A stretch of 64,000 bases of DNA from the sequence record MK327929.1; one strand, given 5' to 3'. Positions 15,640 to 64,000 of this stretch are shown here, piece by piece (the first letter of the stretch is position 1; each line of letters opens with the position of its first letter). This DNA is from Escherichia phage D5505. A program made the position numbers and the translations under genes. The notes under the pieces were generated by a model. It saw only the letters and a list, made by a program, of their open reading frames with translations. It made no database searches and had not been told where the DNA came from.

Positions 15640-15670
15640 TTTGTGTTCCTCATGTTATGTCAGTAAGACT

Positions 15671-15700
15671 ACTATAACACAACACGAGGGACTTGTAAAC
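15671..15700 (-). promoter_or_regulatory. sigma70-type early promoter (GTTTACA - 17 nt - TATAGT), copy A of a 54-bp repeat
   Basis: minus strand GTTTACAagtccctcgtgttgtgtTATAGT; identical element at 31595-31624. Confidence 0.55.
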
Positions 15701-17757
15701 TACATCTTGAACTTTTTAGACATTCCGTTGATGTTAACCAAAGAAGCTAAGATTTGAGAAACTTCGTTTTCCTCTTCTTTTGATTCTTCTACAAGGAATT
15801 GATTAAATCCAGCCATTGGACGAACTTCACCAGTTTCCATCAAATGATCGCCATCATATACTGATTCTTCTAATTGCTCAGAAGGAGGAACGATTGTACC
15901 TTCGATTAGATACTTGTTATAAGCAGTTTCTTTCATAAAGTAAGTACTTACTTTATTAATCTTCAGTAAAATTCCACGCGGTAGAATAACTTCAGCTTCT
16001 GATGGAAATCCTGATAAATGACCCGGAACGATAACTTTGATTCGCTCAGCTCCTTTAATTACCATACCCACGCTAGTTTCAGCATCTTCATTAGCATATG
16101 TAGAATGACTACCCATATGCATCAAATCTTCTGCATCAACGGAACCTTCTCCTTCACCAGAAAATACTGCACCGGAATCATCTAGAGCCATATAGTTTTT
16201 ACCATGCTCGCCGAAGATATTTGGTTTAAGCGATGTAGATACGAAGTTCTTGAAATAGAACATTTTGTTTTCAATGTTATGACGCAAAGTTTTAAAGGTA
16301 ACTTCTTGTCCGCGATAAAGCGTAGTTCCTGGAGGAAGAACTGAACCTTTAGCGAATGCAGAATCCAACGTCTCGATGTGCTTAATAGCTCGTTCCATAT
16401 ATTCTTCACGGGTAGAATCTGGTTTACCCAAAAGGAACGAGTTCATTTCAACATATGAATCTGCACAATAATCTTCAATTACATCAGATTCGGCCTGAGT
16501 CAGTCCTTTTGGAGTTACTTCAGTGCTTGCGTATTCATATGCCTGGGCAGCAGATTCATTAATCAATTTATAAATGCCATTCATGACAAATTGAATAATA
16601 GCTGTCTTTTCATCTGGCGTAGCTTTAGAACCTTTAACTAAATCATTAATAATTTTCTTAATAACATCAAAGCTATTAGAAATATTAATGTCAGCAAGAT
16701 CGCTTAAAATTTTATCAGTTTTATAATCAAAGAATTCTTTATTCTTTAAATATTCTTGAGAACCTTGATATGTTATATCGCTCTGCAACTTGATAGATGG
16801 ATCACGTAAACGTGCATGGGCCAATGCAATATGATTTCGGAAGCTTTCTAGTTCATAATCGCTAGATTTAAAACGAGAAGCACTTCTCATACCACCGATA
16901 GCTCCTTTGCTGAAGTTTGAACCAATCTGGATAACGCCAGAGTTCATTGGTCCTTCTGCTTTATATACCGGAACTTTAGATTCAAACTCTTGATATTTCT
17001 TGGCAGCGAAGCTATCACCCTGTAGCGAAGCATCGACAGTAGAATATTGAGCTTGTGCTGCTAATCGACGACTAATTTTAGTTTTTTGAATAACAGCTTG
17101 ATCCGTGCGCTTATCATTTTCTAAAGCAATAGAAGCAGCAACAGCGACAGCTTTAGGAACAGCATTACCTGTTTTAACATCTACATAAACATCACCGACC
17201 TTCGATTCAACTTTTGTGAATAACTCAGTTGAAATAGGAGGTACACCTGGAATGTCTTCTAAATTGGCATTTTTACGGTAAACCATAATATATGCATACT
17301 TTTTATCATAGTCCCAGATTTCCTTTAAAAGAACATATCGACCTGCTCCTTTAGTACGTACTAAACGGTCAGCAATAACTTGCATTTGACGAGCAGCGCC
17401 ATTTGTTTTACTCTTTAGTACGCGGAATAAGCATGCATCAATTTTATACTGTTTCATTGTTTGAAGAGCAGTATCAAAAACAGCGTTAATGACGCCAATT
17501 GGATTTCCACCCAAGTTTCTAAGTTTAACCAGTGATAATTTCTCGTTGACACCTATCATTACGATATGCATCATTTTATCGCCCGGCTTAACGTTTTTAT
17601 TTGTATCACCTCCAGAGGTGTATGTACAAAATCTAAATCCAGGAAGCACGCTTTCTTCGCCGGCTTGAATAGCAAAAATTTGAGGTATTTTATGCTTAGG
17701 ATTTAAGTTAACAACCGGCGCCGAAGCGCCGTCAAATAATTCTGTAATAAGTTCCAT
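15700..17757 (-). CDS. Alt-like ADP-ribosyltransferase paralog
   Basis: 685 aa; N-terminus MELITELFD shared with Alt; R-S-E ART motifs LYRGQ, FVSTSL, EVILPRG; divergent C-terminal half. Confidence 0.8.
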   Translation of the reverse strand: MELITELFDGASAPVVNLNPKHKIPQIFAIQAGEESVLPGFRFCTYTSGGDTNKNVKPGDKMMHIVMIGVNEKLSLVKLRNLGGNPIGVINAVFDTALQTMKQYKIDACLFRVLKSKTNGAARQMQVIADRLVRTKGAGRYVLLKEIWDYDKKYAYIMVYRKNANLEDIPGVPPISTELFTKVESKVGDVYVDVKTGNAVPKAVAVAASIALENDKRTDQAVIQKTKISRRLAAQAQYSTVDASLQGDSFAAKKYQEFESKVPVYKAEGPMNSGVIQIGSNFSKGAIGGMRSASRFKSSDYELESFRNHIALAHARLRDPSIKLQSDITYQGSQEYLKNKEFFDYKTDKILSDLADINISNSFDVIKKIINDLVKGSKATPDEKTAIIQFVMNGIYKLINESAAQAYEYASTEVTPKGLTQAESDVIEDYCADSYVEMNSFLLGKPDSTREEYMERAIKHIETLDSAFAKGSVLPPGTTLYRGQEVTFKTLRHNIENKMFYFKNFVSTSLKPNIFGEHGKNYMALDDSGAVFSGEGEGSVDAEDLMHMGSHSTYANEDAETSVGMVIKGAERIKVIVPGHLSGFPSEAEVILPRGILLKINKVSTYFMKETAYNKYLIEGTIVPPSEQLEESVYDGDHLMETGEVRPMAGFNQFLVEESKEEENEVSQILASLVNINGMSKKFKM

Positions 17758-17760
17758 GAT

Positions 17761-19809
17761 TTATCCTTGAACGAACTTGTAAGGCATGTTTGCAATATCT
17801 ATGCAAGACGCAATAATTCCAAGAGATGATTCTACTTTCTGTTTAACATTTGATGAAACAAATGATGCAAAGTCAACTCTATCTTCTATATCACCTGTCA
17901 TTGTAACCAATTCACCAGTTTCCATTAAATGGTCTCCGTCATAGATTACCGATTCGGTGAGTTCTTCTGTGGTCATAACTTCAGCTTGAATAAGCTTGTT
18001 GTTAGTTTTAACTGTTCCATCATTGTAAGATGCATCGGTTATTTTATTAACTTTGACCATTAATCCACGTGGCAAAATGACTTCCATTTCATTTGAAGGT
18101 GCTAAACTTCCACCGGGTAAAACAACATTGACCTTATCAGCCCCAGTAATAACCCATCCAATTCCAACTAAATTATCGCTAGAATTTACTAGTCCTTCAT
18201 CAGTTTTATCAATAGAAACACTTAGACGCTTTTCGTCTGGTAAAACACCTACAGATGAATCAGTCATCCAAGTACCAAAAATATTTGGATATAATGATGT
18301 TGACACAAAGTTTCTAAAATAAAAAACTCGATTTTTTACCATTGCTTCATATATTGAAGGTAACATTCGTTGTGAACGATACAAAGTAATACCTTTTGGT
18401 AATCGTTCACCATTTTTAAAGGCTGAATCTAAATTATCAATAGCTTTTTCTATGTCAGATGCTGTCAAAATACTTGTACGCTCATCTGGATTATATAATC
18501 CCAAAAGAGCATTATTTATATCTACATATCCTGAACCTACGTATTCACGAATTCCGCGTTTTTGCGCCGGTGTGTATTTAGATGAATCTTTATTTTCGAC
18601 TATAGGATGTAATGACCATCCAGCTGTAAGAGCATATCCACGTAATTCTCTTCGAATAATCTTTGTTTTTATTGCATTCCAAGAATTTTGTACTAACTCA
18701 TTTGCAGCATCTTGATTTAAATGCGAATGTTTGTTAATATTTCTTTCAAACCAAGCACCTTTATATTTTTCTAAAGTATCATCGACGATAGAAGCAATAG
18801 TTTCTAAAGTTTTTATTGAAGTAATAGATTCTTTTCGTAATCTTTCTAAAGCTTTATTTTTTATTTCTGTATTAACATCAGATTCTTTATCTTCAGGAAT
18901 TATAGAAGCTTCTCTGAATGCCATTCCAGCTGTAACACTATTAAGAGCATTCTCTAATGCAAATCCTGAAGTAGAAATAACAGTTAATTCGTTAGCATCG
19001 GAAATTAAAGGCGCATCAGCGGGTTTATTTAATTCTGCTGCTGAAGCCTCAAATTTTTGAAACATCGGTGTTTCAAATCTAGAAGATTCCAATGATTGAC
19101 TTTGCGCAATTGCTCTACGGGAAATTTTAACTTTAACGATTACAGCTTGGTCAGAACGTTTATCATTTTCTTGTGCAATAGATGCTGCAATTGCCTCATT
19201 TTTAGTTACTTGAGCTCCAGTATCTTTATTGATATAAACATCACCGACCTTCGATTCAACTTTAGTAAAGAGCTCGGTACTAATTTCTGGAACTCCTGGA
19301 ATGTCTTCTAGTGATACATTTTTGCGATGTATAAGAATATATGCATACTTTTTATCATAATCCCAGAGTTCCTTAAGAAGGACGTATCTGCCACCTGAAC
19401 GACTACGGATAAGTCTATCAGCAATAACTTGAATTTGTCGAGCTTGACCAGCGGTTTTAGACTTAAGAATACGGAGCATACAAGCATCAATTTTATATTG
19501 ACGCATTGTTTGCATTGCAACAGTAAAAACTGAATTGATATAATTAATTGGGCTTGGCCCAAGACCTTTCAATTTAGCAATTGAACCTTTAGCGGTTAAT
19601 GTAAAAGGAACAATATGCATCATTTTATCGCCCATTTTTAAATCGCGATTAGTATCACCTCCAGATGTATAGGTACATAAACGAAAGCCTGGCTGTTCAA
19701 TTGCATCATCAACGTGAACTGAAAAAATTTGCGGTATTTTCTTCTTTGGATTTAAGTTTGTAATCGGAAGAGTAGTATCTTCGTCAAATAATTCTGTAAT
19801 GAGTTCCAT
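17761..19809 (-). CDS. alt: Alt ADP-ribosyltransferase (packaged, injected)
   Basis: 682 aa from second ATG; motifs LYRSQ, FVSTSL, EVILPRG; matches remembered T4 Alt. Confidence 0.85.
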   Translation of the reverse strand: MELITELFDEDTTLPITNLNPKKKIPQIFSVHVDDAIEQPGFRLCTYTSGGDTNRDLKMGDKMMHIVPFTLTAKGSIAKLKGLGPSPINYINSVFTVAMQTMRQYKIDACMLRILKSKTAGQARQIQVIADRLIRSRSGGRYVLLKELWDYDKKYAYILIHRKNVSLEDIPGVPEISTELFTKVESKVGDVYINKDTGAQVTKNEAIAASIAQENDKRSDQAVIVKVKISRRAIAQSQSLESSRFETPMFQKFEASAAELNKPADAPLISDANELTVISTSGFALENALNSVTAGMAFREASIIPEDKESDVNTEIKNKALERLRKESITSIKTLETIASIVDDTLEKYKGAWFERNINKHSHLNQDAANELVQNSWNAIKTKIIRRELRGYALTAGWSLHPIVENKDSSKYTPAQKRGIREYVGSGYVDINNALLGLYNPDERTSILTASDIEKAIDNLDSAFKNGERLPKGITLYRSQRMLPSIYEAMVKNRVFYFRNFVSTSLYPNIFGTWMTDSSVGVLPDEKRLSVSIDKTDEGLVNSSDNLVGIGWVITGADKVNVVLPGGSLAPSNEMEVILPRGLMVKVNKITDASYNDGTVKTNNKLIQAEVMTTEELTESVIYDGDHLMETGELVTMTGDIEDRVDFASFVSSNVKQKVESSLGIIASCIDIANMPYKFVQG

Positions 19810-31566: not shown

Positions 31567-31594
31567 AAAGTCCTCATGTTATGTCAGTAAGACT

Positions 31595-31624
31595 ACTATA
31601 ACACAACACGAGGGACTTGTAAAC
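31595..31624 (-). promoter_or_regulatory. early promoter, copy B of the 54-bp repeat
   Basis: identical to 15671-15700: GTTTACA - 17 nt - TATAGT. Confidence 0.55.
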
Positions 31625-37294: not shown

Positions 37295-37606
37295 TTACAC
37301 CGCCATTTTTCCTTTCAAGACGCCGTGGGACTGATAATCTTTGAGAACGAAATCTTTAGGCCTGAGTTTAAGAATGTATTCCAATTGTTCTTTAGTAGAA
37401 AGATAGCGGAATTTATAAGGCAATCCGCCTATTACCAGTTCACAAAGCTCTTTAGGTTCACGACGCAAAATTTCTTTACATTGTTCTACGTGATTCATAT
37501 AGATATGAGTATTACCACCGGAAAATATCAAATATCCCGGAATAAGATTACACATCTTAGCTACAATATGAACTAACGTAGCATATGATGCAATATTAAA
37601 TGGAAG
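37295..37606 (-). CDS. td: thymidylate synthase, exon 2
   Basis: begins CTT CCA TTT (LPFNIAS...) right after intron terminal G at 37607; exon1+exon2 = 286 aa. Confidence 0.85.
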   Translation of the reverse strand, partial: LPFNIASYATLVHIVAKMCNLIPGYLIFSGGNTHIYMNHVEQCKEILRREPKELCELVIGGLPYKFRYLSTKEQLEYILKLRPKDFVLKDYQSHGVLKGKMAV

Positions 37607-38622
37607 CATTATGTTCAGATAAGGTCGTTAATCTTACCCCGGAATTATATCCAGCTGCATGTCACCATGCAGATCAGACTATATCTCCAACTTGTTAAAG
37701 CAAGTTGTCTATCGTTTCGAGTCACTTGACCCTACTCCCCAAAGGGATAGTCGTTAGGCATTTATGTAGAACCAATTCCATTTATCAGATTTTACACGAT
37801 AAGTAACTAATCCAGACGAAATTTTAAAATGTCTAGCTGCATCTGCTGCACAATCAAAAATAACCCCATCACATGAAATCTTTTTAATATTACTAGGCTT
37901 TTTACCTTTCATCTTTTCTGATATTTTAGATTTAGTTATGTCTGAATGCTTATGATTAAAGAATGAATTATTTTCACCTGAACGATTTCTGCATTTACTA
38001 CAAGTATAAGCAGAAGTTTGTATGCGAACACCGCACTTACAAAACTTATGGGTTTCTGGATTCCAACGCCCGTTTTTACTTCCGGGTTTACTGTAAAGAG
38101 CTTTCCGACCATCAGGTCCAAGTTTAAGCATCTTAGCTTTAACAGTTTCAGAACGTTTCTTAATAATTTCTTCTTTTAATGGATGCGTAGAACATGTATC
38201 ACCAAACGTTGCGTCAGCAATATTGTATCCATTAATTTTAGAATTAAGCTCTTTAATCCAAAAATTTTCTCGTTCAATAATCAAATCTTTCTCATATGGA
38301 ATTTCTTCCAAAATAGAACATTCAAACACATTACCATGTTTGTTAAAAGACCTCTGAAGCTTTATAGAAGAATGGCATCCTTTTTCTAAATCTTTAAAAT
38401 GCCTCTTCCATCTCTTTTCAAAATCTTTAGCACTTCCTACATATACTTTATTGTTTAAAGTATTTTTAATCTGATAAATTCCGCTTTTCATAAATACCTC
38501 TTTAAATATAGAAGTATTTATTAAAGGGCAGTCCTACAATTTAGCACGGGATTGTCTACTAGAGAGGTTCCCCGTTTAGATAGATTACAAGTATAAGTCA
38601 CCTTATACTCAGGCCTCAATTA
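37607..38622 (-). mobile_element. group I self-splicing intron of td (1016 nt) carrying I-TevI
   Basis: 5' junction TTGGGT|TAATTGAGGCCTGAGTATAAGG..., 3' junction ...CATAATG|CTTCCA; matches remembered T4 td intron. Confidence 0.85.
37754..38491 (-). CDS. I-TevI: I-TevI GIY-YIG homing endonuclease (intron-encoded)
   Basis: 245 aa; N-terminal GIYQIKN...KVYVGS GIY-YIG motif; C-terminal Zn finger/HTH region. Confidence 0.9.
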   Translation of the reverse strand: MKSGIYQIKNTLNNKVYVGSAKDFEKRWKRHFKDLEKGCHSSIKLQRSFNKHGNVFECSILEEIPYEKDLIIERENFWIKELNSKINGYNIADATFGDTCSTHPLKEEIIKKRSETVKAKMLKLGPDGRKALYSKPGSKNGRWNPETHKFCKCGVRIQTSAYTCSKCRNRSGENNSFFNHKHSDITKSKISEKMKGKKPSNIKKISCDGVIFDCAADAARHFKISSGLVTYRVKSDKWNWFYINA

Positions 38623-39170
38623 ACCCAAGAAAACATCTACTGATCGTTGATACCACTGCAAATCCAAATAGCCATTACGCACATTAAACTGATAGAACAT
38701 ATGACAAGGCGGTAATGCCATCTGCTTGAGTTCAGCTGGATTCCATGCTGAAACAATTTGACGCCTATCATTTGGCAGTTTTTTAATACGATCAATAACT
38801 TCTATAATTTGGTCTACACCACCAAAATCACGCCACTGTTTTCCATAAATTGGACCAAGTTCACCGCTATGGTATCCTAAATCTTTTGCTTGATTTTCGT
38901 AATTTTCATCCCAAACTGTTTTGCCTTGGATTAACGAATCATGTTGAATTAATCGCAAATCATTGACATTTGTGCTTCCCGATAAAAACCAAAGCAGCTC
39001 AGCAATGCAAGCTTTCCAGGCGAGCTTCTTAGTTGTTACTGCAGGAAAACCTTTAGTTAAATCCCAGCGTAATTTAGTACCGAACAAAGCAATTGTTCCT
39101 GTGCCTGTTCGGTCATCGGTTTCGTAGCCATTTTCCAGGATATCTTTAATTAAAAATTGGTATTGTTTCA

Positions 39171-39171
<1 letters not shown>
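38623..39171 (-). CDS. td: thymidylate synthase, exon 1
   Basis: from ATG 39171 (MKQYQF...), ends ...VDVFLG at the 5' splice site. Confidence 0.85.
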
Positions 39172-41622: not shown

Positions 41623-41652
41623 AGTACCATGGAAGGACAAGGATGTAAACAG
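41623..41652 (-). promoter_or_regulatory. early promoter GTTTACA - 17 nt - TACTAT with conserved A/T upstream element
   Basis: near-identical cassettes at 58483-58512 and 62138-62167. Confidence 0.5.
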
Positions 41653-41682
41653 TTTTGTGAAAAAATTTTTGAAATAAAAAGG

Positions 41683-44953: not shown

Positions 44954-44961
44954 TATAAATA
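44954..44961 (+). promoter_or_regulatory. late promoter TATAAATA upstream of gene 34
   Basis: exact TATAAATA 35 nt upstream of ATG 44996. Confidence 0.55.
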
Positions 44962-44995: not shown

Positions 44996-47900
44996 ATGGC
45001 CGAGATTAAAAGAAAGTTCAGAGCAGAAGATGGTCTGGACGCAGGTGGCGATAAAATAATCAACGTAGCTTTAGCTGACCGTACCGTAGGAACTGACGGT
45101 GTTAACGTTGATTACTTAATTCAAGAAAACACAGTTCAGCAATATGATCCAACTCGTGGATATTTAAAAGATTTTGTAATCATTTATAATAATCGTTTTT
45201 GGGCAGCAACGGATAATATTCCAAAACCTGCTGGAAATTTTAATAGAATTCGTTGGAAAGCATTACGTACTGATGCCGTATATACAACCGTATCATCTGG
45301 ACCATATCAATTAAAATCCGGAGAAGCAATTTCAGTAGATACATCAGTTGGCAATGACATTGAGTTTACTTTACCACCTTCTCCGCTTGATGGAGAAACC
45401 GTAATAATTCAAGATATCGGTGGAAAACCTGGCATAAATCAGGTTAAAATAAATTCTTCAAATCAGAGTATTGTCAATTTTAGAGGTGAACAGGTACGTT
45501 CAGTTTTAATGACTCATCCAAAGTCACAGATGATATTCATTTTTAATAATCGTTTGTGGCAAATGTATGTTGCTGATTATAGCAGAGAAGCTGCGATTGT
45601 TACTCCATCGACTGCGTATCAAGCACAATCTAATGATTTTATCGTACGTAGATTTACTTCTGCTGCACCAATTAATGTTAAACTTCCGAGATTTGCTAAT
45701 CATGGCGATATTATTAATTTCGTTGATTTAGATAAACTGAATCCACTTTATCATACAATTGTTACTACATACGATGAAACGACTTCAGTACAAGAAGTTG
45801 GAACTCATTCCATTGAAGGCCGTACATCGATTGACGGTTTCTTGATGTTTGACGATAATGAGAAATTGTGGAGATTGTTTGACGGGGATAGTAAAGCACG
45901 TTTACGCATTATAACAACTAATTCAAATATTCGTCCAAATGAAGAAGTCATGGTATTTGGCGCGAATAATGGAACAACCCAAACAATTGAACTTCAGCTT
46001 CCGACTGATATTTCTGTTGGTGATACTGTTAAAATTTCCATGAATTACATGAGAAAAGGACAAACAGTTAAAATCAAAGCTGCTGGTGAAGATAAAATTG
46101 CTTCTTCAGTTCAATTGCTGCAATTCCCAAAACGTTCAGAATATCCGCCTGAAGCTGAATGGGTAACAGTTCAAGAATTAGTTTTTAACGGTGAAACTAT
46201 TTATGTTCCAGTTTTACAACTTGCTTATATAGAAGATTCTGATGGAAAATACTGGGTTGTACAGCAAAACGTTCCAACTGTAGAAAGAGTAGACTCTTTA
46301 AATGCTTCTACTAGAGCAAGATTAGGCGTAATTGCTTTAGCTACGCAAGCTCAAGCAAATGCTGATTTAGAAAATTCTCCACAAAAAGAATTGGCAATTA
46401 CTCCAGAAACGTTAGCTAATCGTACTGCTACAGAAACTCGCAGAGGTATCGCAAGAATAGCAACTACTGCTCAAGTAAACTGCTACAGAAACTCGCAGAG
46501 GTATCGCAAGAATAGCAACTACTGCTCAAGTAAATCAGAACACTACATTCTCTTTTGCTGATGACCTTATCATCACTCCTAAAAAGCTGAATGAAAGAAC
46601 TGCTACAGAAACTCGCAGAGGTGTTGCTGAAATTGCTACGCAGCAGGAAACTAATACAGGTATCGATGATACTACAATCATCACTCCTAAAAAGCTTCAA
46701 GCTCGTCAAGGTTCTGAAACATTATCGGGTATTGTAACTTTTGTATCTACCGCAGGAGCTACTCCAGCCTCTAGTCGTGAATTAAATGGTACAAATGTTT
46801 ATAATAAAAACACTAATAATTTAGTTGTTTCACCTAAAGCTTTGGATCAGTATAAAGCTACTCCAACGCAACAAGGCGCAGTAATTTTAGCAGTTGAAAG
46901 TGAAGTAATTGCTGGACAAAGCCAAGAAGGATGGGCAAATGCGGTTGTAACGCCAGAAACGTTACATAAAAAGACATCAACTGATGCAAGAATTGGTTTA
47001 ATTGAAATTGCTACACAAAGTGAAGTTAATACAGGAACTGATTATACTCGTGCAGTCACTCCTAAAACTTTAAATGACCGTAGAGCAACTGAAAGTTTAA
47101 GTGGTATAGCTGAAATTGCTACACAGGTTGAATTCGACGCAGGCGTCGACGATACTCGTATCTCTACACCATTAAAAATTAAAACCAGATTTAATAATAC
47201 TGATCGTACTTCTGTTGTTGCTCTATCTGGATTAGTTGAATCAGGAACTCTCTGGGACCATTATACCCTTAATATTCTTGAAGCAAATGAGACACAGCGT
47301 GGTACACTTCGTGTAGCTACACAAGTTGAAGCTGCTGCAGGAACATTAGATAATGTTTTAATAACTCCTAAAAAGCTTTTAGGTACTAAATCTACCGAAT
47401 CGCAAGAAGGTGTTATTAAAGTTGCAACTCAGTCTGAAACTGTGACTGGAACGTCAGCAAATACTGCTGTATCTCCAAAAAATTTAAAATGGATTGTGCA
47501 GAGTGAACCAACTTGGGCAGCAACTACTCTGATAAGAGGGTTTGTTAAAACTTCTTCTGGTTCATTAACGTTTGTTGGTAATGATACGGTAGGTTCAACA
47601 CAGCCATTAGAATCATATGAGAAAAATGGTTATGCAGTATCACCATATGAATTAAATCGCGTATTAGCAAATTATTTGCCATTAAAAGCAAAAGCTGTAG
47701 ATAGTAATTTATTAGATGGTCTAGATTCGCTCCAGTTCATTCGTAGGGACATTGCACAAACAGTTAATGGTTCACTAACCTTAACCCAACAAACGAATCT
47801 GGGTGCCCCTCTTGTATCATCTAGTACTGCTACATTCGGTGGATCAGTTTCAGCAAATAGTACATTAACTATTTCTAATACTGGAACGGCAACTCGTCTG

Positions 47901-48920
47901 ATTTTTGAGAAAGGACCTCAAACTGGAACAAACCCGGCTCAAACGATGACAGTCAGAGTGTGGGGAAATCAATTTAGCGGGGAATCAGACACAACACGTT
48001 CTACCGTATTTGAAGTTAGTGATGAAACGTCTAGTCATTTTTATTCTCAGCGTAATAAAGCTGGAAATATAACATTTAATATCAACGGTACAGTAACACC
48101 GATAAATGTTAATGCTTCAGGAACATTGAATGCAAATGGTGTAGCAACATTTGGTAATTCAGTCACTGCAACTGGTGAAATTATTTCTCGAAGCGCAAAT
48201 GCTTTCCGTGCTATTAGCGGAAATTATGGTTTCATTGTTCGCAATGACGGGTCAGTAACGAATTTTATGCTTACTGCATCGGGTGATCAGACTGGCGGAT
48301 TTAATGGATTGCGTCCTTTAGCTATTAATAATGCATCTGGCCAAGTAACGATTGGTGAAAGCTTAATCATTGCCAAAGGTGCTACTATAAGTTCGGGTGG
48401 TTTGACTGTTAACTCGAGAATTCGTTCTCAGGGCACTAAAACATCTGATTTATACACCCGCGCTCCAACATCTGATACTGTAGGATTCTGGTCAATTGAT
48501 ATTAACGATTCAGCCACTTATAACCAGTTCCCGGGTTATTTTAAAATGGTTGAAAAAACTAATGAAGTGACTGGGCTTCCATACTTAGAACGTGGCGAAG
48601 AAGTTAAATCTCCTGGTACATTGACTCAGTTTGGTAACACACTTGATTCGCTTTACCAAGATTGGATTACTTATCCAACGACCCCAGAAGCACGTACCAC
48701 TCGCTGGACGCGTACATGGCAGAAAACTAAAAATTCTTGGTCAAGTTTTGTTCAGGTATTTGATGGAGGTAACCCTCCTCAACCTTCGGATATAGGAGCG
48801 ATCCCATCTGATAATGGAATAATAGGTAATCTTACTATTCGTGATTTCTTACGAATTGGTAATGTTCGCATTATTCCTGACCCAGTGAATAAAACTGTTA
48901 AATTTGAATGGGTTGAATAA
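44996..48920 (+). pseudogene. 34: long tail fibre proximal subunit gp34, disrupted by 55-bp tandem duplication (frameshift)
   Basis: ATG-frame terminates at TGA 46559-46561; remainder open in +1 frame 46479-48920; removing one repeat copy gives one 1289-codon ORF. Confidence 0.85.
46424..46533 (+). repeat. perfect tandem direct repeat, 2 x 55 bp, inside gene 34
   Basis: unit ACTGCTACAGAAACTCGCAGAGGTATCGCAAGAATAGCAACTACTGCTCAAGTAA at 46424-46478 and 46479-46533. Confidence 0.95.
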
Positions 48921-48928
48921 GAGGTATT

Positions 48929-50044
48929 ATGGAAAAATTTATGGCAGAGTTTGGACAAGGATATGTCCAAACGCCATTTTTATCGGAAAGCAATTCAGTA
49001 AGATATAAAATAAGCATAGCGGGTTCTTGCCCGCTTTCTACTGCGGGGCCATATGTTAAATTTCAGGATAATCCCGTTGGAAATCAAACATTTAGTGCAG
49101 GTCTTCATTTAAGAGTTTTTGACCCTTCTACAGGAGCATTAGTTGATAGTAAGTCATATGCTTTTTCTGCTTCAAACAATACAACATCTGCCGCTTTTGT
49201 TAGTTTCATGAATTCTTTGTCAAACAATAGACTTGTTGCTATATTAACTAGCGGAAAGGTTAATTTTCCTCCTGAAGTGGTATCTTGGTTAAGGGGAGCA
49301 GGAACTTCAGTTTTTCCATCAGATTCAGTATTGTCAAGATTTGACGTGTCATATGCTGCTTTTTACACTTCTTCTAAAAGAGCTATCGCATTAGAGCATG
49401 TTAAACTAAGTAATAGAAAAAGCACAGATGACTATCAAACTATGTTAGATGTTGTATTTGATAGTTTAGAAGACGTCGGAGCTACAGGATTTCCTAAAAG
49501 AACATACGAAAGCGTTGAGCAATTTATGTCTGCGGTTGGTGGAACTAATAACGAAATTGCGCGATTGCCAACTTCAGCTGCTATAAGTAAACTTTCTGAC
49601 TACAATTTAATTCCTGGTGATGTTCTTTATCTTAAAGCACAACTATATGCTGATGCTGATTTACTTGATCTTGGAACTGCAAATATATCTATTCGTTTTT
49701 ATGATGCATCAAATGGATATATTTCCTCGACCCAAGCTGAGTTTACTGGGCAAGCTGGGTCTTGGGAATTAAAAGAAGATTATGTAGTTGTTCCTGAAAA
49801 TGCAGTAGGATTTACGATATATGCACAAAGAACTGCCCAAGCAGGTCAAGGCGGCATGAGAAATTTAAGCTTTTCTGAAGTATCAAGAAATGGCGGAATT
49901 TCAAAACCTGCTGAATTTGGTGTCAATGGTATTCGTGTTAATTATATCGGTGAATCCTCTTTACCTCCAGATATAATGGTACTTCCTACACAGGCATCGT
50001 CTAAAACTGGTAAAGTGTTTGGACAGGAATTTAGAGAAGTTTAA
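48929..50044 (+). CDS. 35: gp35 long tail fibre hinge connector
   Basis: 371 aa, synteny. Confidence 0.8.
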   Translation: MEKFMAEFGQGYVQTPFLSESNSVRYKISIAGSCPLSTAGPYVKFQDNPVGNQTFSAGLHLRVFDPSTGALVDSKSYAFSASNNTTSAAFVSFMNSLSNNRLVAILTSGKVNFPPEVVSWLRGAGTSVFPSDSVLSRFDVSYAAFYTSSKRAIALEHVKLSNRKSTDDYQTMLDVVFDSLEDVGATGFPKRTYESVEQFMSAVGGTNNEIARLPTSAAISKLSDYNLIPGDVLYLKAQLYADADLLDLGTANISIRFYDASNGYISSTQAEFTGQAGSWELKEDYVVVPENAVGFTIYAQRTAQAGQGGMRNLSFSEVSRNGGISKPAEFGVNGIRVNYIGESSLPPDIMVLPTQASSKTGKVFGQEFREV

Positions 50045-58512: not shown

Positions 58513-58543
58513 CGTTTTGTGAAAAAATTTTTGAAATAAAAAA

Positions 58544-63050: not shown

Positions 63051-63989
63051 TTATTTAAATTGTTCAGTAACGTCTTCAACTACTTCGTATTGGCAGGTAC
63101 GCATTTTAGCATCGTTGTAATCAATCGGAATTGATACTACATCACGCGGATGTACTTTAACTTTTACAACTCGGCTAGTTGAACTGCCAAAGTGACGAAT
63201 ATAAGATTTAGAACACACATGCAGACCGCGAGAACAAGTTTGTGTATCATCGTCATTCACACGAGTACGCGGCATTTTAACTACTTTACCAGGACTGTTA
63301 TCAAAAGTGTTTGAGTGACAATCAAAGTAATTGCTACGAACTACTTTCCAAGCATAGAAGTAACCATCTTCTGTAATTTCAATATCGTTTGCTACTAAGA
63401 AATCAAAGAGTCGAGATACCGCTTTCTGGCTTGGGTTTTCCAGCAGATTTTCCAAGAACGGAAAATAAAATTCAAAGTTTTCGCCTTTTTCCATCGAATC
63501 AAGAATACGATCAACCAAACCAGACCGCAATTCAATATTTTGATAGAATAAGCTTCCACCTTCAATTCGAACATCGCCGGAAATATATTTTTCAACAGCG
63601 CGACGAACATTAATTTTTTGTGCTGCTTCTTCTAACTTATCTGCTACGAGCAGATTAAGAATTTCCTGGAAGTTTGAATGAGTATTAGGTGTTGCATTAT
63701 AAGTTACACCATCAACAGTAATCGAAATGAATTTTTTAGATGCATTCCAAATAATGTCAGATTTAGCAACTGGAGCAATAACTGCATCGCTATTAACTTT
63801 AACTGTAATATCACCGCTAATAGTAACTTTAGGGCGTTTAGCTTCTTCAGCATTTTTCAAAACACGACGGATTGTGTCAACCGATACACCTTGCCAATCA
63901 GCCAATTCCTGCTGAGTGTAATTACCACTTGAATACAGTTTAACAATTTCAGCTTGTTCGTTTTTGGTCAGGCATTTAATATTGTACAT
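63051..63989 (-). CDS. rIIB: RIIB membrane-associated protein
   Basis: 312 aa; start codon near window end; length as T4 rIIB. Confidence 0.85.
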   Translation of the reverse strand: MYNIKCLTKNEQAEIVKLYSSGNYTQQELADWQGVSVDTIRRVLKNAEEAKRPKVTISGDITVKVNSDAVIAPVAKSDIIWNASKKFISITVDGVTYNATPNTHSNFQEILNLLVADKLEEAAQKINVRRAVEKYISGDVRIEGGSLFYQNIELRSGLVDRILDSMEKGENFEFYFPFLENLLENPSQKAVSRLFDFLVANDIEITEDGYFYAWKVVRSNYFDCHSNTFDNSPGKVVKMPRTRVNDDDTQTCSRGLHVCSKSYIRHFGSSTSRVVKVKVHPRDVVSIPIDYNDAKMRTCQYEVVEDVTEQFK

Positions 63990-64000
63990 AATTTTCCTTA

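Follow-up and report, generated by a model that had tools for sequence, protein, structure and literature searches.

Genomes of T4-type phages are circularly permuted, and their short reads therefore assemble into a circle. Assemblers of the SPAdes type print such a circle as a linear contig in which the first k bases are the same as the last k, the default largest k being 55 for SPAdes with reads shorter than ~150 nt, where k takes the values 21, 33 and 55, as well as for metaSPAdes. Tandem-duplication frameshifts of T4 are in turn part of the classical genetics of its rII and lysozyme genes. Terminal repeats of ~55 bp have been described on SPAdes circular contigs (PMC12509680), as have k-mer-length terminal repeats of 127 bp on circular contigs (PMC5923482). 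Gene 34 counts as essential (PMC8573959, Table 3), and a lesion that breaks it is therefore not expected in a propagated phage. The T4 product of the gene, gp34, is represented by the PDB entries 9x3r, 5nxh, 5nxf and 4uxe, where chain 9x3r_M has a length of 1289 residues.

We analysed a window of 64,000 nt (64 kb) from Escherichia phage D5505 (MK327929.1), focusing on a locus that is gene 34 (long tail fibre proximal subunit) of a T4-like phage, a Tequatrovirus. A 600-nt query across the site matched 505 phage records, all of them annotated as long tail fibre proximal subunit. The protein restored by removing one of two tandem 55-nt copies contains the Pfam domains Gp34_trimer (PF21446, 110 bits) and Gp34_2nd (PF21560, 129 bits; score cutoff 27 for each), and the displaced downstream part (46536-48917, residues 1-794 of its translation) aligned end to end with residues 496-1289 of 9x3r_M (E=0). 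The gene order agrees with the annotated genomes of G4498 and Sf21: rnh precedes gene 34 on the opposite strand, while genes 35, 36, 37 and 38 are colinear downstream. Since gene 35 is intact, the fibre operon is otherwise normal. Upstream of the gene lies a TATAAATA motif, the T4 late-promoter consensus and here a putative late promoter. Once one 55-nt copy is removed, the locus has the same 1289 codons, domains and neighbours as T4 gp34, and every feature by which we recognise the family identifies it as an ordinary gp34 ortholog. As written, in contrast, its ORF splits after residue 495 with a displacement of +1 nt, and a single ORF of ~1289 codons colinear with gp34 appears only upon removal of that copy. 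The coordinates of the locus are collected in Table 1.

Table 1 Features of the gene 34 locus, in positions of the window
Feature	Position	Strand	Remarks
TATAAATA motif	44954..44961	+	Pattern match, 35 nt before the ATG of gene 34
Gene 34 as written	44996..46561	+	521-codon ORF: 495 native gp34 residues and 26 out-of-frame; TGA 46559-46561
Copy 1 of the 55-nt unit	46424..46478	+	Native; codes for gp34 residues 477-495
Copy 2 of the 55-nt unit	46479..46533	+	100% identical to copy 1
Gene 34 remainder, residues 496-1289 and stop codon	46536..48920	+	Intact, one base off the ATG frame
R2, second native copy of the 24-nt ACTGCTACAGAAACTCGCAGAGGT	46599..46622	+	R1 at 46424-46447
Gene 35 (long tail fibre proximal connector)	48929..50044	+	Intact; size and position as annotated in G4498 and Sf21

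The duplication described in an earlier, sequence-only reading of this DNA was borne out by direct string comparison, which showed two identical 55-nt units head-to-tail at 46424-46478 and 46479-46533, as well as by Tandem Repeats Finder (period 55, 2.0 copies, 100% matches and a score of 222 for 46424-46533). It is the sole long tandem repeat within the 64 kb. Aligned to G4498 by BLAST, the sequence splits in two exactly at 46479, and the two segments overlap by 56 nt in the reference. The copy-to-copy junction between 46478 and 46479 reads ...GCTCAAGTAA followed directly by ACTGCTACAG..., or over a wider stretch GCAACTACTGCTCAAGTAA followed by ACTGCTACAGAAACTCGCAG. At the borders of the duplication, the unit begins with ACTGCTACAG and the sequence next to it continues with ATCAGAACAC, the two having only 1 nt in common.

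With its 55 nt, which are not divisible by 3, the extra unit makes gene 34 appear frameshifted. The sequence-only reading had the ATG frame running through 26 aberrant codons into a TGA, and the ORF reading gave the same result with 521 codons in total, of which the 495 native residues are 99.8% identical to gp34 of phage G4498. Likewise, the remaining ~2.4 kb of gp34 had been described as open to 48920 with neither a start nor a Shine-Dalgarno sequence of its own; we found this second frame open from 46479 to 48920, its earliest start-type codon being a TTG at 46842 that lacks a Shine-Dalgarno sequence. Deletion of one unit restored a 1289-codon ORF, as had been predicted, and this single-copy gene of 3870 nt equals the G4498, Sf21 and BW-1 genes in length and corresponds to the PDB chain 9x3r_M.

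An internal restart was rejected as a means of rescue because the TTG at 46842 lacks a Shine-Dalgarno sequence, no promoter-like signal above chance was found in 46479-46842, and the product would lack the amino-terminal 495 residues. Rescue by ribosomal frameshifting was likewise rejected, as inspection revealed no recognised +1 shift motif between 46479 and 46558/46561. A recoded gene would combine a conserved split with a shift-prone site; all relatives have one continuous ORF. In the sequence as written we thus found no route to a working gp34.

Alignment to gene 34 of close relatives, which the sequence-only reading had proposed as a check, revealed a single copy of the unit in ~500 Tequatrovirus records and the junction in none of them. 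For the relatives listed, the 600-nt query was covered as 545 nt in two pieces, corresponding to one copy. When 60 nt spanning this junction symmetrically were searched against 50,697 phage records, no match covered them in one piece, and neither IMG/VR nor the JGI metagenome contigs contained the exact 42-nt junction. Look-ups of the exact 521-aa gene 34 product and of the exact gp35 product found neither on record, no phage record was at least 99% identical to the window over 24 kb, and the literature searched yielded no case of a real duplication in gene 34. The single-copy gene is 99.15% identical to that of G4498, with no indels relative to G4498, Sf21 or BW-1. Downstream of the repeat, 20 codon differences from G4498 are synonymous and 7 nonsynonymous. 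Judged from these comparisons, the 2.4 kb outside the ATG frame have not decayed. We rejected an old pseudogene given the absence of indels and the mostly synonymous downstream substitutions. A generally poor assembly was rejected as well, because with ORFs of at least 80 aa compared to G4498 no other annotated gene in the 64 kb is broken except for the intron-type split of td.

The first 24 nt of the unit, ACTGCTACAGAAACTCGCAGAGGT, recur at 46599-46622, in agreement with the sequence-only reading, which had considered slippage or unequal recombination between such intragenic repeats a plausible origin of the duplication. This part of the earlier reading was not supported. In single-copy coordinates R1 starts at 46424 and R2 at 46544, a spacing of 120 nt or 40 codons, so that recombination between them would give an in-frame duplication of 120 nt rather than one of 55 nt, and no public record carries the junction of a 120-nt R2-to-R1 duplication. 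Of the features that mark a repeat-mediated duplication, neither a direct repeat or microhomology at the borders (1 nt) nor a length equal to the repeat spacing (120 versus 55 nt) was found. Slippage between flanking repeats was not supported either, the unit borders having 1 nt in common, and the ACTGCT hexamers inside the unit were rejected as an origin since they lie 42 nt apart, not 55.

That the unit and R1 begin with the same base is nevertheless a real, non-random coincidence. The window contains only 10 to 55 boundaries of such repeats, and the chance that a random 55-nt unit starts or ends on one of them is of the order of 0.001, with a range of 0.0003-0.002 for repeats of 16 to 24 nt or longer. 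We built the sequence resulting from a switch from R2 to R1, whose junction would read ...CTGAATGAAAGA+ACTGCT...GGT+ATCGCAAG..., and listed its k-mers at k=33, 55, 77, 99 and 127. At k=55 this path comprises 30 novel k-mers. It departs from the native sequence at the 55-mer whose last bases are R2, and its point of return is a node corresponding to 46424-46478, base for base the observed unit. At none of the other values, k=33, 77, 99 and 127, does the rejoin node match the unit. A k=55 graph with a weak R-mediated path thus predicts where the unit starts and where it ends, with no parameter left to adjust, and the geometry of a de Bruijn graph at k=55 best explains the coincidence.

Taken together, the evidence makes it very probable that the second 55-nt copy is an assembly artefact, namely an untrimmed circular-contig overlap, and not a mutation of the virus. 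Most likely, gp34 of the actual phage is normal, with 1289 residues. The locus combines two identical copies of the default k length of 55, a re-opened record, a unit that coincides with a k-mer node, and relatives with a single copy. The conventional T4 map origin, located 11 nt past the rIIB start codon, is where the window ends; its last base is also the last base of the G4498, phage 107, APTC-EC-2A and UTI-E4 records, which are opened at the T4 origin, and its last 120 nt (63881-64000) align in register with the final stretch of the G4498 record, rIIB being the last gene. This position of the end shows that the source sequence was deliberately rotated, or re-opened, after assembly. The locus resembles the described k-mer terminal repeats in being an exact repeat of the default k length, in belonging to a permuted circular genome and in being absent from relatives. 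It differs in that the repeat is internal and in tandem rather than at the ends of the record, and would require a rotation that preceded trimming.

The artefact could have arisen as follows. SPAdes at k=55 would have been the assembler, and a rare R2-to-R1 read path, originating from a chimera or a rare recombinant, would have turned the 55-mer starting at the first base of R1 into a junction node. Once this path had been pruned, the circular genome may have been left as a loop anchored on this node, so that the circular assembly was anchored on the R1 55-mer. The sequence was later re-opened at the conventional T4 origin, the divide between rIIA and rIIB, as shown by the window end. If one overlap copy was left in place before this rotation, a contig of the form U-X...Y-U would have become ...Y-U-U-X.... 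The original contig would then have begun with what is now copy 2 and ended with what is now copy 1, 55 nt each, and its ends would meet between 46478 and 46479. Against this scheme stands that a k=55 graph is unbranched at a 24-nt repeat unless the reads hold an R2-to-R1 junction, the minority path being hypothetical.

A non-biological error of a different kind would make the length of 55 nt coincidental. It could be a mis-join, made by hand or by a script, between two overlapping contigs or between both ends of one linear contig, a fault in polishing or merging, or a change made after assembly. The perfect identity of the copies, the single-copy relatives and the rotated record would all fit such an error, and an assembler with words of 24 nt or less would end its contigs at the 24-nt repeat, a possible reason why the unit starts at R1. 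However, nothing in such a small-k break leads one to expect that the overlap measures precisely 55 nt (R plus 31 nt), whereas the k=55 node accounts for both unit ends without a free parameter. We regard errors of this kind as very unlikely. The sequence-only reading had concluded that gene 34 is inactivated in the phage, leaving a real conditional or revertible mutation, population heterogeneity, and an assembly or sequencing artefact as options. The evidence favours the last of these and does not support inactivation or a real mutation.

A real spontaneous 55-bp tandem duplication would create a null frameshift of gene 34, either as the majority genotype or in a subpopulation complemented in trans at high multiplicity, and would readily revert by homologous recombination between the copies with loss of one. 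The duplication is present in the sequence as written, the undecayed downstream part would fit a very recent event, and both tandem duplications and duplication frameshifts are classical in T4. With the spontaneous T4 duplication frameshifts it shares the head-to-tail arrangement, a length that is not a multiple of 3, the location in a coding sequence and a would-be revertibility. Unlike those, it has no flanking repeat beyond 1 nt, affects an essential structural gene of a presumably propagated phage, and matches an assembler node in both length and phase. A plaque-purified stock should furthermore not have a lesion in an essential gene (PMC8573959, Table 3) as its consensus. The border microhomology of 1 nt, the prediction of 120 nt rather than 55 from the R1/R2 repeat, the lack of a restart or recoding signal in 46479-46842, and the absence of the junction from every other source searched (phage records, IMG/VR and JGI metagenome contigs) also argue against a real event, which would moreover leave the match to the default assembler k and to the k=55 graph node unexplained. 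Overall, a real duplication appears highly improbable. Similarly improbable in our estimation is a lysate dominated by, or mixed with, a gene 34 frameshift mutant that would be maintained by trans-complementation, revert frequently through recombination between the copies, and act as a natural, reversible on/off switch of long-tail-fibre production in a T4-like phage.

With the untrimmed overlap as the preferred reading, the biological weight of the duplication is small, as the phage almost certainly has a normal gp34. It has more weight for data quality, where its practical use is to correct the record. The record would be 55 bases too long, show an essential gene as truncated when it is not, and invite a misleading 'fibreless' annotation, and these errors could spread into tail-fibre and host-range databases. 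As a diagnostic for this class of error, we propose a perfect internal tandem repeat with the length of a default k (55, 77, 99 or 127) in a rotated genome that is circular or permuted. Artefact repeats of k length would often start at the boundary of a short native repeat.

Elsewhere in the window, the thymidylate synthase gene td is split on the minus strand (37295-39171). Exon 1 (39171..38623, 183 aa) is 91.8% identical to the intron-less Td of G4498 and exon 2 (37606..37295) 69.5% identical to G4498 Td. The exons are separated by a putative intron of 1016 bp (37607-38622), as long as the group I intron of T4 td including the homing-endonuclease ORF. An Rfam gathering scan of the whole window returned no family, including over the td gap. 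The adjacent segment 39176-39366 gave no alignment with G4498, and the 115-aa hypothetical gene G4498_00247, which G4498 has between td and frd, is without a counterpart in the window.

An exact 54-nt dispersed repeat occurs at 15647-15700 and 31571-31624, 16 kb apart. On the minus strand it contains a promoter-like site consisting of TTTACA, a 17-nt spacer and TATAGT (10/12 matches plus a TG extension), followed in both copies by GAGGA and ATG. In the corresponding region G4498 has only the first copy, and the repeat may be a mobile early-promoter cassette like those of T4-type phages. Further exact repeats of 30 nt (17185-17214 and 19234-19263) and 24 nt (17287-17310 and 19336-19359) have a common offset of 2049 nt and sit in a pair of neighbouring paralogues, each ~2 kb long and hypothetical according to the G4498 annotation. 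Finally, the exact 24-nt direct repeat GTTTTGTGAAAAAATTTTTGAAAT is found at 41652-41675 and 58514-58537, 17 kb apart.
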